A stretch of 64,000 nucleotides of DNA from Fistulifera solaris (Eukaryota), in contig AP026126.1 in NCBI GenBank assembly GCA_030295235.1, forward strand, positions 372,001 through 436,000, in the 5' to 3' direction. Of this stretch, positions 40,216 through 47,416 are shown piece after piece. Positions within the stretch are counted from its first letter, which is position 1; each line of letters starts with the position of its first letter. Under the pieces are notes generated by a model that was not told the DNA's origin, made no database searches, and saw only the letters and a program-made list of their open reading frames with translations. The position numbers and the translations under genes were made by a program.

Positions 40216-41273
40216 TCATCCCCTCGGAGTCGCAAAACCAAATTGCGTATTATCAAAGGGTTCCGGCAAGGGCTGCTTGGTGAGAGCCTCTGCTCTGGCT
40301 TTGGTCTCTGCAAACATTGGATGGGTAAAATAACGTTCTCCGAAAGAAGGAATGATACATACAGCTACTTTGTCTTGGTTTCAGGACGAGAGCAAACCTG
40401 CACCGCAGCCTCCACAATTGCCCCCGACGAGACCCCGGTGGGCAACCCCATCATCCACAATTTGAACGTCATTGCCTCGGCTATACTCGAGTGCACCGCA
40501 ACAACTTCATCCAAAAGAGTAATATCCAAAACCTCAGGAACTAAACCCGCTCCTATCCCCTGTATCCTGTGAGGACCTTGGGGTCCGATCTTAGTTCCGC
40601 CTCGAGCTTCCGTAATCAGCATTTGTTCTTGCGGTTCGACTGCTACTGTATACAACTCCGGTTTCAGTGGCGGGCAGTCAAATTCTGTGCATCCCTTGAT
40701 GTATTGCGATACACCTGTGACAGTTCCCCCGGTCCCAACTCCTGCCACGAATATGTCAATAGTGCCCTCTGTATCACGCCAGATTTCCGGTCCCGTCGTC
40801 TCTCGGTGGATCGCCGGATTGGCGGGGTTGACAAACTGATTGAGCATGACACCCTTCCCGCCCAGCTCTTGCAAAATTTCGTGGGCCTTGGCCAATGCCC
40901 CGTGTACGACGGTTTCTTTGGGTGTCAAGACGACTTCGGCCCCCAACGCCAATAGCATCATGCGCCTTTCGACGCTCATGGTTTCCGGCATGGTGAGAAT
41001 GCAACGGTAGCCACGTTCGCGGGCAATAAAGGCGAGAGCAATGCCGGTGTTCCCCGAAGTCGCCTCCACGAGAACGGATTTTCCCGGAATAAGGAGGCCG
41101 TCTTTTTCGGCTCGATCAATCATGCTTTTGCCCAAACGATCCTTGACGGAACTACAAGGACCGAGGGATTCCATCTTGCCCAGGAGAGTAGCATTGTGAT
41201 TCGGAACGAGGCTGGAAAGGTCAAGTAAGGGAGTGTCACCGACCAAGTCGGAAGGACGAGCTGCGACGCGCAT
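40216..41273 (-). CDS. cysK: Cysteine synthase (O-acetylserine thiol-lyase)
   Basis: SVKDR (PLP Lys), EATSGNTG, GVGTGGT, HRIQGIGAG, GVSSGA, PSFGERY after a frameshift near 40370. Confidence 0.95.
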
Positions 41274-41907
41274 AATTCGAAAAGGAAGGTTGATGATGAT
41301 GCTATTACTGTCGTTGTGTGACGCTAAAACAAAATGGGAAGATGATTCTCATGGAAATTATCTTTCCCACGATCCTTTGAGAAGCGCAGAATGGGATGAT
41401 GATACATGCATGAGAACGCCTGAGAAGTCTGTTTTCAACCGCGCGTTGTAGATGATGAACTCCCACGAAATGATTGTTCTTGGTAAATTTCAACAAAGAT
41501 ATTGGCACTGTGGCCCTGTTGATGAAGTTCCCATTACCCTCATGTGTTAACTTGCTGCGAAATGATAAGTATTTTGAGAATGCCTTCGAGTTTTTCATTG
41601 CAATCATCAATGTTTGGTACCGGAAGGTCACTTATTTTCCTATATAACATAGTTTTTTCTTAACTGACATTTCTCACAACTCGACCAGAAAGTACCTTTG
41701 TTGAATTTTCTGCTTCCTCATTTATCATGATCGCAAACCCAAGCGGACATTAATCAACAACTGCAAACAATACTCGCAAATAACAATAATTGATTACCAG
41801 CTTGCAACCTAATGATAAACATTTCTGGTTCGACCACGGCATCGAGATATAAGATGGTAACTCGCAACACATTCGTTGGAAAGGTGAAGTCTTCCAAACG
41901 CTTCACA

Positions 41908-44499
41908 ATGCGGATGCCGTTGTGGTTAAGATGGATCATTAGCTGGTTCTTTCTTGTTCCGTCATTACAACCTTCTTTCCTCCAGATAAGTTTCTTCAAT
42001 ACTCTACTACTTCCTACGTACGCAGAAGTCTTGGATGGCCCGGCTAGCTACGCGCGTGGTCAGGAACTCTTCCAACAAGGTGCCTACGAGGAGGCGGCCA
42101 CGGAATTGTGGAAAGCCGTTCTCTTGCACGGAAGTACTCCACCGGAGCAGCAGTACAGCGTACCCGACGTCTTCCAGATATTCATGCAATGTTACAGTAT
42201 TCAGGGGAAAACGGCGGACGGTTTTGCGTTTGTGGCTTCCGAATCCTTTCGTCGGGGACAGATCGATATGGGAAAATCGTACTTGGAACAAGCCTTTGCC
42301 GTAGATGCCAATAGCGCAGCGGCCAAAGCTGTGCGGAACGAATTCCGATCTCTTTTCGAAGTTACAGTGGGCCATGACGAAACATCAGCCAGTCAAGACG
42401 ATCAAAGCTTGAATGCCGACCTCAAGGGCAAGACGCCCGAAGAATTGTACGAAATCGGGTCGTTGCATTTTTCCGAAAAGAACTTTGAAGAATGTGCGGA
42501 TGTCTTTGAAATTTCCTGTCTTCGGTCCGGTGGACAGCTGGGTCCTTCCTGCGTTAACGCAGTGTACTGTCGAATGATGATTTCGGATTACGGATTCAAT
42601 GGAACTCAATTCGAAAAAGATATCGCACGTATCGAAGATTTTACCAGGAAAGAGACGTCTCTCTTTCGCTTAGATTACTCGGGCATGTCTATGAAAGAGC
42701 CCTTTGCTTGGAGAAGGGCAACATCGGTTCATCCTCACATGGTAGGTTGCCAGCAATATCTTGTTTGCGGCGTTTACTGAATAATATCATTAACTCTTGT
42801 ATCTCAATAAACTGGTGCACACAGATGCTTGGGTACCCAGTAGACCCCATGTTCAAACGATACGTTGCTGAATCGTGTGCATTCATGGATGAACCCATGG
42901 CCCGAGCCACAAAAGCAGTGAACAGTCAGCTCCCCCCACTTCCAGATGGTTTGCCGTACGACGTGGATGCCTACCGGGAAACCTTTCGGGAGGAATTTCG
43001 GGATCCGTCGGCAAAGATACGCGTTGGATTTGTGGGCGCCGGTTTTAACTCGAAAGCAGTCATGTATCTTTCGCATGATATGTTTCGCTTTTTCGATTCG
43101 GAACGCTTCGAAATTCATGTTTTCAGCTTCGGCCCGCCGGACCACGAGCTTTTCATTCGCCATAGCATGAGAGGTGTTGATTGGCGAGAACGCGTGAAAG
43201 CAAACGTGGATTATTTCCATGATTGCCAAGGTATGAAAAATGATCATATCGAGGCCGCAAAGTATATTCATGATCACCGAATTCATATTTTGATCGAATG
43301 GGATGGTTACGCAAGACAAGGCGAGAGAGCTCAAGGCCTGTTTGCCTTACGACCCGCACCTCGTAAGTATTTGACATAGTCCAGCGACTGCCGTTGCCTA
43401 ATGTGAAGCACTCATAGACTTTCGTGTCGGAATTGCAGTTCAAATGATCCATCAAGAATACATAGGGACTAGTGGTGGCCTTTTCGTCGACTACCACTTC
43501 ACTGATTTAATAACAACCCCCGTTGAAACTCAAGATCTTTTCGTCGAGAAATTGATTTACATGCCAAATCACTTTTTCAGCAAAGGACATGCATATCAGG
43601 CCGAAGTGAAAAAGCCTACTTACGAATACACTCCGAAAGACGGTGCATATCGACCAGGTACAGGCACACCATCTGAAAACCGATGCCTTGCACCCCTTAA
43701 TGTAGGCCCGTCCAAGCCTTCTTTTGTCTTCTGTAACTTTAATAAAATACTGAAGAACAATCCCGAGACTCTAAGGAGCTGGATCCGAATACTTAGAGAG
43801 GTCCCGGACTCGATGCTGTGCTTGATGGAGAATCCTGACATTGCAATACCATACGTACGGCGATTTATCCACGAAGCAGCCGGAACATCGGATGGGTCCG
43901 ATCCCAATACTTTTGTACCTGGAGACGGAGATGCACTGAATCAGCGTATACACTTTCTTCCGTGGGAAAAAAATCCTTTTGTTCATCAGATGCGAAATCA
44001 AGACTTTTGCAATGTAATGCTTGATTCACATCCTTACAATGGACATACGGTTGCCCAGGATGCTCTTTATGGTGGAGTGCCTATTGTCACTCGAAGCGAC
44101 GGCAAAGACATGAGTTCTCGCGTTACAACTTCCGGAAATATTGTGCTCGGAATTGAGGAGTTGAATGCGTACGGTGGTTCTGTGGACTACGAAAATATCG
44201 CAATACAATTAGGAACAAATTTCACGAAGTACGATGGCATCAGAAAGAAGTTAATAGCTTCAGCACTCCAGCGTAACCCTATGCATCCATATTGGGATGT
44301 GGCGCGGTATGTAAAGAACTTTGAGACAGGGCTGTACACGGCATGGTCAAATTTTCTAGAAGGAAACCTCCCGCGTCATATTTTTGTTGATGAGGGCGAA
44401 CAAGCTACGAAAGGGACCTACGACGAAGAAATAGTGGCAAACCCACCACAAGGAAAATCGAAAAGGAAAGAAACTAGAGCTAACAAAGACGAATTATAA
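41908..44499 (+). CDS. GT41 (OGT/SPINDLY-family) glycosyltransferase with TPRs, N-terminal hydrophobic leader and C-terminal KDEL
   Basis: IRVGFV, IHILIEWDGY, FALRPAPLQ, FVFCNFNKILK, DSHPYNGHT, GVPIVT, SRV; introns 42742-42824 and 43363-43438; ends NKDEL*. Confidence 0.88.
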
Positions 44500-44533: not shown

Positions 44534-47416
44534 CTACCCTGAAGTGTCCATTTTACCAAGAACGTCTCCGCTCTCTGTCTCGATGACATCGTACATTTTG
44601 CCCTCCAAAGGAATTGCATCTTTGCCCGTGGCAAAAAGCTTTTTTCTGTCCATGATCTTCTCAAATTCTTCATCTGAAATTGCAATGTTTTCAATATCTC
44701 CGCCTCTCGCCTCCAGATCCCTGATATCGCTCTGCAACAACGACTGAAGACCCTCCACATCAATGTCGCCACCAGACCGGCGGCCAGCTTTCTTAAAGTC
44801 TCCACCGGCAATAGTCATTCTCTCAAGTTTCTTCTTTGATATCTGCTTCTCCATCATTTCAATATCAACCGAATTAGCTGTAATTAGACGGTAAACAGCA
44901 ACCGGACGGGTCTGGCCAATGCGATGACATCCTGCAAACAACTTTGTTAGAAACGAAAGCAGATCAAATCAAAACAAGTGACAGCATCGCTTTACTTACT
45001 GTCCATTGCTTGAGAATCAGCAAACTAAGAATTCGCAGTCAGAATGTGAGGTATGCTGATATTCGGAACGAGTGAATATGCAATTAGTCGTCTCCAATAA
45101 AACTCACCGGGTTCCAGTCACTATCAAAAATGATGCAAGTGTCTGCAGCGGTCAAGTTAATGCCCAAACCACCAGCACGTGTGCTCAACAGAAACACAAA
45201 AAGACGGTCGTCTGCTGTATTCCTTTTCCCGTTGTCCAGGTATTTCTCAGCATTGAACTTATCCATTTGCCTTTGGCGCTCGTTAATTTCCGTTGACCCA
45301 TCAATGCGACAATAACTCCATTTCCTGAAGCGCAAGTAGTCTTCCATAACGTTCAGCACGCTGGTCATTTGACTAAAAATGAGGACTTGGTGGCCATCTT
45401 TGAAAAGACGATCAAGCATGCGGTCGAGAAGAGCAAATTTACCCGACGCCCGGACCAGAAGCTGAGGGTGAACTGTTCCGATGTGAGACCCGGTAGCCGG
45501 GTCGATAGGCTCTCCGAAGAGAAACGGGTGGCTATCAACAAGAAAAGGCAACAAAGTTAGAACAAGTCAGTTCTCAAGAAAGTTCACAAAGAAGAAACAC
45601 TCACTTGATATTCTTGCGGTGATTCATCATTTTATTTGTCTGGCTCAAGGTGCGACCTGATTCTATCCCTTGCTGGATAAGAGAGTCACGCAAAGTTCCT
45701 TTCTCGATTAAATCAGCGTATCCTTCCTGAAGCTTCGAGATCCCGGAATAGACAATAACCTCTTTCTTTGGGGGCATTTCTTTCAAAACATCTGTCTTGA
45801 TACGGCGAAGCAAAAACGGCCGAAGGATAGAGTGGAGTTTTGTTACAGTTTGATTCTTTCTCTGCTCAAGTAAAATTGTCTCTTCCTTGGTTGCTCCCTG
45901 ATTCTTCTGACCAATATTCTTGAAACCAAACCAAGACTGAAACACCGAAAGATCGTCGAAGATCTGAGGATTGACGAAATTCAAAAGGCTCCAAAGTTCA
46001 TCAAGTGAGTTTTGAATGGGTGTTCCTGTAAGTAGGAGTCTGTTTCCAGCTTTGAGACGCTTGAGGGATGATATCAAAGTGCATCTGTGGTTCTTTAGAC
46101 GATGGCCTTCGTCCACGATGAGGTAAGTGAACTCGGAAAGTTTTTCCAGTCTGGCTTGATCTCGAATGGCAACCTCGTATGATGTGACAATGAAAGGGTA
46201 GTCAGAATTGCGCCTCAATTTTGGATTCATTGGACCCTTGAACATGGCTTCGCGCTCGGCGTTATTACCATGGTATCGAATCACAGGTTGAGTCGGCAGC
46301 CATTTTTCGAACTCCCGAACCCAATTCGGCAGCGTAGCCAGAGGAGCAACAATCAAAAATGGTCCAGAGACTTTCTGTGTCAGCAAATGTGCAATAAGTG
46401 CCACACATTGAACTGTTTTACCGAGACCCATTTCTGTAACGCGGTGAAAATAAATTGTGAGCGCCGACTGAGCAATCATTTAGCAACATTCAAAAGACAA
46501 GCTGTGCAACGTACCATCTGCCAAGATCCCCGAAACACCATTCTCAAAAAGCGAAGCCAGCCAACGGACACCCTCAAGCTGGTAATCTTTGAGAACGCAA
46601 TCGCTTGCGAGGTTTGGAGGTTGAATGAAGACGGCCTTGTCTAGCGCAGCTAGCTTCGCTTTCTTTGTAGCACCTTTACCGTCGTCGCTGCCTTTGCGTT
46701 TGTTCTTCTTCTCCATTTTGGCAAGCGTTTTTCGTGCTTGATCTGCCATGGCCGACTGCAGATCGTCGAGATCACGAGCAATGAAGTTTGAATATTCGTG
46801 CGCTTTGGAGAGAAGAAAATCAAGCTGATTCGCCTAAGGGTAATGAGACGCATGTCAGTTTTAGAAAAGACAGTCAAACACAAATCAATCTGTTGAAACC
46901 TTCAACACCACTGACGTATTTTACAATGCACAGCTGGTCAAACTCCAATGTATCGCCAAGCAAAACATCCCTCCAGCGAAACAAGTCGATAAGAAACGTC
47001 ACGTACTCTTTGGTGGATGTGAGGAGCTTCCGAGGTTCCGTCTTTCTTCTCATCCGCATCACCTTGTAACGACGCGTTTTTTTCACCGTCCGATTCCTGC
47101 TCCGAGTCCGAAGCTTGCACTTGTCCGTCTTCCAATGCTTTTTGGAGAAGCTTCGGCGCCGCGTGAACATCCTTGGGCTGAGATGGGAGTGACGGCGAAG
47201 AGAGAAGGCGCGTTTCTTCTTCTTTTCCAAGTTCGTGAAAAGCTCGTCTTCTTCATCGGCTCCTTCCTCCTTCTCTTCTACTGGATCTTCAATTTCATCT
47301 TCTTCGGGCGTCAAAGCCGAAACCGGGTTATCCAGCATTGGCTTGGGTTCTTCCAAGTCCTTGGCTTCGGTCACTTCCGGAGGGAAATTGGCGGAAGAAT
47401 TTTCGAGAGTCGTCAT
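44534..47416 (-). CDS. DDM1: SNF2-family chromatin remodeler, DDM1/HELLS (LSH) subfamily
   Basis: GILADEMGLGKT, DEGHRLKN, TGTPIQNSL, LSTRAGGLGINL, DSDWNP, QAMDRCHRIGQ; about 5 introns; no HAND-SANT-SLIDE or chromodomain. Confidence 0.85.

Follow-up and report, generated by a model that had tools for sequence, protein, structure and literature searches.

Glycosyltransferases of family 41 (GT41), the family of OGT, SEC and SPY, are the model for nuclear and cytosolic protein glycosylation, and the luminal O-linked N-acetylglucosamine (O-GlcNAc) of animals comes from an unrelated enzyme, EOGT. Here we describe a GT41 gene of Fistulifera solaris whose 810-amino-acid (aa) product is predicted to carry both a secretory leader and a C-terminal KDEL and which, by sequence comparison, is a member of a conserved, strongly constrained family and not an oddity of one genome. 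The gene occupies positions 41908-44499 on the forward strand of the 64,000-nucleotide stretch that we analysed (the window; contig AP026126.1 of assembly GCA_030295235.1, positions 372,001 to 436,000), where the list of open reading frames (ORFs) and the sequence itself give three exons and two GT-AG introns. We infer, with a probability of about 0.65, that it encodes a soluble GT41 protein glycosyltransferase of the endoplasmic reticulum (ER) lumen, and the grounds for this are the gene structure, the GT41 membership and fold, the conservation of the leader, of xDEL and of the donor-binding residues, and the replacement of the D554/H558 pair of human OGT; its location, catalysis, protein acceptors and donor are deduced from these.

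Such a protein would be made on the rough ER, where its signal peptide would lead it co-translationally into the lumen and the leader would then be lost, while the C-terminal KDEL would hold the enzyme there via the K/HDEL retrieval system. A short superhelix of about five tetratricopeptide repeats (TPRs) would present an extended segment of a client protein over the GT-B active site, as in OGT and SPY, and one sugar would be moved from a nucleotide sugar, with inversion, onto a Ser/Thr hydroxyl, the equivalents of Lys K842 and of H920/T921 of human OGT gripping the diphosphate. The clients would be proteins in transit through the ER, namely secreted and cell-wall proteins and, in diatoms, whose ER lumen is continuous with the outermost plastid compartment, possibly plastid-bound precursors. 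A wider and more tentative reading, which we would place somewhat below an even chance, holds that diatoms, together with related sequences of the same clade, possess a whole ER-luminal GT41 branch of at least two subfamilies, with a rebuilt acceptor side (Gly, Ser or Asn plus Lys in place of the D554/H558 pair), which would install an undescribed single-sugar O-modification other than GlcNAc on ER-transit proteins; the targets would be cell-wall and silica-associated proteins, or plastid precursors crossing the chloroplast ER.

If the luminal reading is true, a major algal group has transferred a protein-glycosylating GT41 machine to its secretory pathway, luminal 'OGT-like' glycosylation has arisen independently of animal EOGT, and the gene points to an unknown protein modification in diatoms. 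The proteins that diatoms secrete or build into their walls are important for silica formation, for adhesion and for making recombinant proteins. The GT41 family described here would also be a natural experiment on the purpose of the D554/H558 pair and on the C917/Tyr position as a selector of the donor, and the reading is directly testable in transformable diatoms.

A search of the literature, with subscription journals and figure-only supplements outside its reach, found no description of an ER-luminal GT41 clade. Queries combining GT41 with KDEL, or O-GlcNAc transferase with signal peptide and HDEL, found no paper, GT41 with ER retention found an EOGT paper only, and neither GT41 with lumen nor diatom O-GlcNAc with signal peptide found anything relevant. 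The accessible main text of a brown-alga GT41 survey (PMC11468063) contains none of the terms 'signal peptide', 'endoplasmic reticulum', 'KDEL' and 'transmembrane', and 'signal peptide' is absent from three of its supplementary files. In print, secretory GT41s are hinted at no more than incidentally: tables of oomycete secretomes include GT41 counts (in excerpts of PMC4316629), and one GT41 with a signal peptide is among the regulated genes of a pelagophyte (in a passage of PMC11375080).

Predicted sorting signals and their conservation

The window protein ends in ...RANKDEL, whose last four residues (44485-44496, forward strand) form a predicted ER retrieval motif and are followed directly by the TAA stop codon (44497-44499). 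Exon 3, used as the query against proteins of 617-2000 aa, returned 165 relatives at E <=1e-10. Among the best 120 of these 165, which are 53-74% identical to exon 3, 95 have a terminal ..EL, which takes the form x[DE]EL in 81 and some other form in 14, and the commonest x[DE]EL tails are HDEL (28), SDEL (14), NDEL (7), RDEL (6) and KDEL (6). One homologue (P0087) has an internal ...HDEL followed by about 30 extra residues, and another (P0053) stops at ...THDE.

For comparison with other GT41 proteins, 283 proteins of at most 1,400 aa were aligned with hmmalign to a profile of the family alignment A1 and sorted by their residue at the position of H558 of human OGT. Lys at this position, found in 168 proteins, defines the family class; His, found in 89, defines the control class, which consists of animal and fungal OGTs and bacterial GT41 proteins; another 5 proteins have some other residue and 21 are gapped. 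Where the C-terminus is complete, ..EL ends 109 of the 139 Lys-558 proteins (92 of them with [DE]EL) and none of the 60 His-558 controls. The preliminary description of this locus, which had read the gene as a relocated, ER-type GT41, had pointed to the terminal KDEL, and this type of tail proves to be conserved in the homologues. That such a tail acts as a retention signal in a diatom is shown in passages of PMC3503769, in which an antibody expressed in Phaeodactylum tricornutum is kept in the ER/cell with a C-terminal DDEL and secreted without it; a passage of PMC3229587 is also cited for DDEL retention of antibody in this species.

At the other end of the protein, residues 1-39 (MRMPLWLRWIISWFFLV...LLLPTYA|EV; 41908-42024, forward strand) make up a putative signal peptide, with a hydrophobic uncharged run from residue 9 and, judged by eye, a putative cleavage site TYA|EV that places the small residues Thr and Ala at -3/-1. 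Leaders across the family were called by home-made Kyte-Doolittle (KD) hydropathy rules, with counts limited to proteins complete at the N-terminus. Under the strict rule, an uncharged 12-residue window of mean KD >=2.0 within the first 60 aa, 95 of 131 Lys-558 proteins have a leader versus 2 of 78 His-558 controls; under the laxest, a 9-residue window of mean KD >=1.9 within the first 70 aa, the figures are 115/131 and 32/78. The hydrophobic N-terminus is therefore, like the tail, a trait of most of the homologues, and both findings support the earlier ER reading as far as sequence goes. Leader (here a 10-residue window of mean KD >=2.0) and ..EL occur together in 72 of the 118 family proteins that are complete at both ends, and the net charge N-terminal to the hydrophobic window is positive in 88 of 107. 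In most N-complete members the leader adjoins the conserved domain directly, a median of 21 aa separating the hydrophobic window from the domain's first conserved Gly; because so short a gap leaves little space for a plastid transit peptide, plastid targeting was rejected.

The start codon is not fixed, with in-frame ATGs at 41812, 41854, 41908 and 41914, and the hydrophobic leader lies inside all four of the possible products. P0229, the 299-aa fragment of a close ortholog, shares the unusual leader of the window protein and has its predicted start 8 codons upstream of the equivalent of 41908.

Features of the mature part of the protein also fit an oxidising, glycosylating compartment, to judge from the alignment. 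The N-glycosylation sequon NGT (...GFNGTQFE...; 42598-42606, forward strand) is conserved, with a sequon at this column in 120 of 156 family rows, and the family has seven conserved Cys columns, with candidate pairs such as that of FEISC and GPSC. Six of the seven are Cys in at most 8 control rows, but for three of these six, which belong to the TPR region, the alignment contains no more than 5-6 control rows.

Gene structure, fold and family

Exon 1 (41908-42741, forward strand, as are all parts of the gene) is given by the ORF list and the sequence; it encodes 278 aa from the ATG at 41908, comprising the leader and the TPR-like region up to ...SVHPHM, and can be aligned to its homologues from the DGP motif on. 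Intron 1 (42742-42824; 83 nt, GTAGGT...CACAG, with the GT donor at 42742) precedes exon 2 (42825-43362), which encodes the N-terminal catalytic lobe and ends in phase 1. Intron 2 (43363-43438; 76 nt, GTAAGT...TTGCAG) precedes exon 3 (43439-44499), which supplies the remainder of the N-lobe, a short loop at the place where metazoan OGT has its intervening domain, the C-terminal catalytic lobe, the tail and the TAA stop. Splicing yields 278+179+1+352 = 810 aa. The removal of intron 1 rebuilds the family motif HPHM|MLGYP (...SVHPHM|MLGYP...) as it stands in P0001, the closest full-length homolog, and the codon split by intron 2 (C|TT, Leu) rebuilds RPAPLQMIHQEY (RPAP-L-QMIHQEY), which corresponds to RPAPVQMLHQEY in P0001; both junctions align without gaps to intron-free homologues. 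The hydrophobic N-terminus, TPR-like repeats, two GT41 lobes and terminal KDEL listed in the preliminary description are all present in this model, which adds two introns that were not mentioned there. No identical full-length protein was returned for 41908-44499 among the best 120 of the 165 relatives of 617-2000 aa, the top match being 74% identical over exon 3.

The Pfam family PF13844 (Glyco_transf_41), with a cut-off of 25 bits, matches exon 2 with 43.3 bits (2e-11) and exon 3 with 125.6 bits (2.3e-36), and P0001 with 208.2 bits. In exon 1 all TPR matches, at aa 46-76, are below threshold, the best being TPR_2 with 25.2 bits against a cut-off of 27. Within the scan as a whole (E up to 0.1), only PF13844 and TPR families were found, with no GT61 domain and no other glycosyltransferase family. 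The solved structures closest to exon 3 of the window are those of human OGT (9.5e-33), Drosophila OGT (3.4e-31) and the bacterial XcOGT (2.4e-18), followed at a greater distance by Arabidopsis SPY (3.1e-10) and Thermobaculum OGT (9.3e-8).

An AlphaFold2 (AF2) model was made of P0001, which is 55, 72 and 73% identical to exons 1, 2 and 3, respectively, with an 83-row family alignment supplied (mean predicted local distance difference test score, pLDDT, 87.2; predicted template-modelling score, pTM, 0.77). The model has a detached, low-confidence N-terminal helix at residues 10-29, corresponding to the leader, then six helices at 45-150, a low-confidence acidic linker at 150-169, four helices at 184-260 and two Rossmann-like lobes. 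Its TPR-like part thus has about 10 paired helices, and together with the sub-threshold TPR matches it suggests that the region 42031-42690 (forward strand) of the window encodes a TPR-like helical domain of about 5 helix hairpins with an acidic disordered linker. A Foldseek search of the PDB with this model returned human OGT first (5bnw; E 1.6e-33, target-normalised template-modelling (TM) score 0.65), then XcOGT and SPY, and aligned the model to human OGT constructs that comprise TPRs and catalytic domain. The intervening domain, some 120 aa long in animal OGT, is missing, residues 524-558 of P0001 standing opposite residues 390-513 of the human chain, and the same gap appears in exon 3. 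By its sequence and by the modelled fold of its homolog, the window protein is a GT41 member.

All organism names in the family are those of diatoms (Seminavis robusta, Attheya, Cylindrotheca, Nitzschia, Epithemia and Conticribra weissflogii), and the lineages of three of these, which were checked, show that it spans raphid pennate, mediophyte and thalassiosiroid diatoms. The database labels of its members say merely 'protein O-GlcNAc transferase' or 'glycosyl transferase family 41 protein', and mean column identity in the family alignment is 40%. When 1.84 billion representative proteins were searched with a profile, 29,288 GT41 relatives scored at E <=0.001, and the best 150 of them were taken. 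Much of the listed profile matches consisted of 78 giant proteins (1,427-3,855 aa; among P0126-P0269) with several tandem GT41 catalytic domains; the 60 inspected mostly have N-termini with TPRs of bacterial style and canonical DF..H motifs, of which one protein may contain up to 6, and are unrelated to the Lys-558 clade.

A second luminal-type subfamily (P0141, P0154 and P0270-P0281) was brought out by a search with P0141. Its motif at the D554/H558 site is GYVSCSLKSK, it has clear signal-peptide-like leaders, and its tails include SDEL, SEEL, VDEL, GDEL, ADEL and DDEL; a look-up of P0141 in the ESM Atlas found only generic bacterial and plant GT41 clusters. Because diatoms have about two GT41 genes per genome (supplementary file 2 of PMC11468063) and there are two luminal-type subfamilies, the entire diatom GT41 complement could be luminal. 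The deepest-branching Lys-558 members, P0201 and P0262, have hydrophobic leaders, keep Asp-554 and lack xDEL, and on these sequence features may be an intermediate between canonical and luminal-type GT41. When homologs of P0201 were sought, one EukProt entry came up and otherwise distant matches only.

A maximum-likelihood tree (LG+G4) was built from 492 catalytic-domain columns of 74 rows, with three rows less than half filled left out. The 47 sampled Lys-558 proteins make up one side of a branch with full support (100 in both the ultrafast bootstrap, UFBoot, and the Shimodaira-Hasegawa-like approximate likelihood-ratio test, SH-aLRT), and the other groups are nine animal and fungal OGT rows (100/97) and 18 bacterial rows (99/92). 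A quick tree of all 77 rows gave the same Lys-558 grouping (SH-aLRT 100). As the tree is unrooted, with three groups and no plant SEC/SPY rows, it cannot place the origin of the clade between eukaryotic OGT and bacterial GT41. P0323, an NCBI entry marked '[Frag...', was considered as a canonical diatom OGT and rejected, since it falls within the animal OGT group beside a nematode sequence. In 185,579 prokaryotic species genomes no relative was found among 19 pattern matches to two family-specific peptides, a search that gives weak evidence of absence.

Active site, donor sugar and alternative explanations

Residues are numbered as in human OGT, anchored on chain 5hgv, a D554N mutant with Asn at the aligned position, so that HPH gives H498, GYVSSDFGNH gives D554/H558, NFNQLYK gives N838/Q839/Y841/K842 and LCNGHTTGMD gives C917/H920/T921/T922/D925; counts are of filled alignment rows of the Lys-558 family. 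The Lys equivalent to K842, which we take to be the catalytic Lys of human OGT, lies at 43753-43755 (forward strand, as are the following sites) in NFNKILK and is Lys in 157/157 family rows. The His of HPH that corresponds to H498 (42736-42738) is kept in 158/159 rows, and N838 in 154/157, H920 and T921 each in 148/148 and D925 in 142/148. The residue names obtained from 5hgv agree with usage in the accessible passages of PMC9715652, according to which K665 of SPY, the match of K842, is essential.

Other positions have changed. In the motif GFVGAGFNSK (43026-43055) D554 is replaced by Gly (43041-43043) and H558 by Lys (43053-43055); at the D554 column the family has Gly in 135 rows, Ser in 14, Asn in 11, Ala in 6 and Asp in 2, versus Asp in 85 of the 89 His-558 controls. 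The preliminary description was right that the motif His is absent, a statement that concerns H558 and not the retained H498. The family also has Met for H499, Lys for Q839 (156/157), Leu for Y841 (153/157) and Val or Thr for T922. In the sequence YNGHTVAQD (44035-44061), of which YNGHT covers 44035-44049, C917 is replaced by Tyr (44035-44037) and T922 by Val, and H920, T921 and D925 are kept. The window protein has every one of these kept or changed states of the family.

The C917 position bears on the donor, since passages of PMC9715652 argue that a Tyr or Phe at this site makes the space too small for GlcNAc. They state that the Tyr of SPY clashes with the GlcNAc of UDP-GlcNAc, that O-GlcNAc activity is low or absent in XcOGT and TtOGT (Tyr), and that UDP-glucose is the donor of HMW1C (Phe). 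Tyr occupies this position in 148/148 family rows (and in 36 of the 89 controls), and because it is invariant the donor is probably not UDP-GlcNAc, and the sugar probably one smaller than GlcNAc. The earlier suggestion of a different donor sugar thereby gains in plausibility. Selected algal donor sites in the brown-alga survey, not necessarily those of this clade, are judged to favour UDP-sugars (PMC11468063, in part).

Several points weigh against the reading of a soluble, catalytic ER resident. The leader of the window protein is long, atypical and rich in Trp, Ser and Pro, and passes only the laxest hydropathy rule, as the 32 controls do; the signal peptide is a putative one, called by hydropathy rules. 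Endings other than ..EL are found in 25 of the 120 homologues listed and in 30 of the 139 C-complete Lys-558 members; several of these ends look truncated or mispredicted, and xDEL may in truth be more frequent than counted. The structure was modelled for a 55-73% identical homolog instead of the window protein itself. With the loss of the D554/H558 pair, which OGT, SPY and bacterial GT41 keep, the acceptor side or the chemistry may have changed, and Q839 and Y841 have become Lys and Leu. Finally, the His/Arg pair that matches H901/R904 aligns only after a one-residue shift in the pairwise comparison with human OGT; the His and Arg of bacterial rows align to the His-x-x-Arg columns of the family in 47 and 64 of the 89 controls.

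These changes give some room to a luminal GT41 whose acceptor would be not protein Ser/Thr but, for example, a glycan, a polysaccharide primer or a lipid-linked intermediate. The altered acceptor-side residues D554, H558 and Y841 and the new invariant Lys at 558 and 839 would be compatible with such an enzyme, and passages of PMC11468063 describe many ochrophyte GT41 orthologous groups and suggest new activities for those far from characterised enzymes. Against this stand the TPR-like domain and OGT-type architecture, which appear from the model to be retained, and the fact that every characterised GT41 activity in the passages of PMC11468063 and PMC9715652 acts on proteins, and we consider a non-protein acceptor unlikely.

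It is also quite unlikely that the protein is secretory without being a soluble ER resident, either as a type II protein with an uncleaved signal anchor or as a Golgi or secreted enzyme whose xDEL only retrieves escapees. The long, atypical leader, with an n-region of 27-41 aa if the start is at 41812 or 41854, would suit an anchor, the basal P0201 and P0262 have leaders without xDEL, and GT41 entries stand in the oomycete secretome tables mentioned above (PMC4316629); but xDEL or xEEL is kept in most members of both subfamilies, and the DDEL tail was enough for retention in P. tricornutum (PMC3503769, in the passages cited).

A luminal pseudo-enzyme, which would have lost catalysis and act in the ER as a TPR-based binding, chaperone or lectin-like factor, seems to us improbable. 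It would account for the replacement of D554 by Gly, Ser, Asn or Ala in 166 of 168 proteins, for the Lys at 558 of all class members and for the changes at Q839 and Y841. The near-invariance of the donor-binding residues K842, H920, T921 and H498, however, is hard to explain without the binding of a nucleotide sugar. Moreover, H498, H558 and Y841, once proposed as the base of OGT, are too far from the acceptor for that role, and an OGT D554 mutant (printed as D544A) stayed active, according to passages of PMC9715652, so that an enzyme without the Asp/His pair need not be dead. The argument that the catalytic His is missing and the enzyme therefore dead was rejected on these grounds.

Very improbable, finally, is a protein that is not luminal at all (cytosolic or nuclear like OGT and SPY, or plastid-targeted, with leader and KDEL incidental or artefacts of the gene model), for although all characterised eukaryotic GT41 enzymes are nucleocytoplasmic, O-GlcNAcylation is described as confined to the nucleocytoplasmic and mitochondrial compartments (a passage of PMC6278486) and SPY as nucleocytoplasmic (likewise in PMC9715652), every possible start includes the leader and the next Met would cut into conserved TPR sequence, leader and ..EL coincide in the majority of both-end-complete members with ..EL in no control GT41, and the window-to-domain gap leaves a transit peptide little room.

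Genomic setting and comparison with known systems

The neighbours of the GT41 gene are ordinary nuclear genes, and no second GT41 gene was found in the 64-kb window. Upstream and divergent, on the reverse strand at 40365-41273, lies a 302-aa ORF of the pyridoxal-phosphate-dependent PALP family (PF00291, 195.8 bits), cysteine-synthase-like by eye. Downstream and convergent, on the reverse strand at 44534-46479, is an SNF2-type helicase, split over three or more ORF pieces (SNF2-rel_dom 224.4 bits, Helicase_C 70.6 bits). No more than about 35 nt separate the end of its last coding piece from the stop codon of the GT41 gene, and the two 3' ends are thus tightly packed.

Among known systems, human OGT (3PE3, 5BNW) is the closest solved relative both by sequence (9e-54 with P0001, 9.5e-33 with exon 3) and by fold. 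Like OGT, the window protein combines a TPR-type region (here TPR-like hairpins) with N-Cat and C-Cat lobes and has HPH with H498, together with N838, K842, H920, T921 and D925. Unlike OGT, it has predicted sorting signals, a secretory leader and a KDEL, and about 5 TPR-like hairpins (human OGT has 13.5 TPRs), a loop of about 35 aa (in P0001) in place of the roughly 120-aa intervening domain of animal OGT, and the replacements D554 to Gly/Ser/Asn, H558 to Lys, Q839 to Lys, Y841 to Leu and C917 to Tyr. It thus departs from the nucleocytoplasmic OGT/SEC class in its predicted secretory signals and in lacking Cys917 and the intervening domain.

SPY, the plant GT41 protein O-fucosyltransferase (7Y4I, 8DTF), shares with the window protein the GT41 fold, the essential Lys and a Tyr at the C917 position (Y744 in SPY), but its similarity is much weaker than that of OGT (3.1e-10 with exon 3, 8.6e-18 with P0001). 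In SPY, moreover, the Asp/His pair survives as D491/H495 and L439 takes the place of H498 (PMC9715652, in part), and the enzyme is nucleocytoplasmic, with no leader and no xDEL. The bacterial short-TPR GT41 proteins (XcOGT, 2JLB/2VSN; TtOGT, 5DJS) resemble the window protein in having few TPRs and no intervening domain, as well as a Tyr at the C917 position in both XcOGT and TtOGT, and they reach target-normalised TM scores of 0.76-0.84 in the Foldseek comparison with the P0001 model. They differ in that DF..H is kept, leader and ..EL are absent and they form a separate group in the tree.

The ER lumen of other organisms holds enzymes that add single O-linked sugars, among them POFUT1/2, POGLUT1 and TMTC1-4, some with KDEL-like tails and the TMTCs with luminal TPRs; their families are unrelated to GT41, and the likeness is one of functional analogy only. 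EOGT, which itself has a KDEL-type tail, is the functional analogue with which the comparison is most direct, a soluble ER enzyme that adds a single O-linked sugar to secretory proteins, and by this analogy the window protein may play a comparable role. Passages of PMC13123520 place EOGT in the ER and attribute to it the luminal O-GlcNAc of animals, and a passage of PMC9715652 describes the GT65 POFUTs as ER-localised. EOGT differs from the window protein in its ancestry, belonging to GT61, whereas among glycosyltransferase families the window protein matches PF13844 only.

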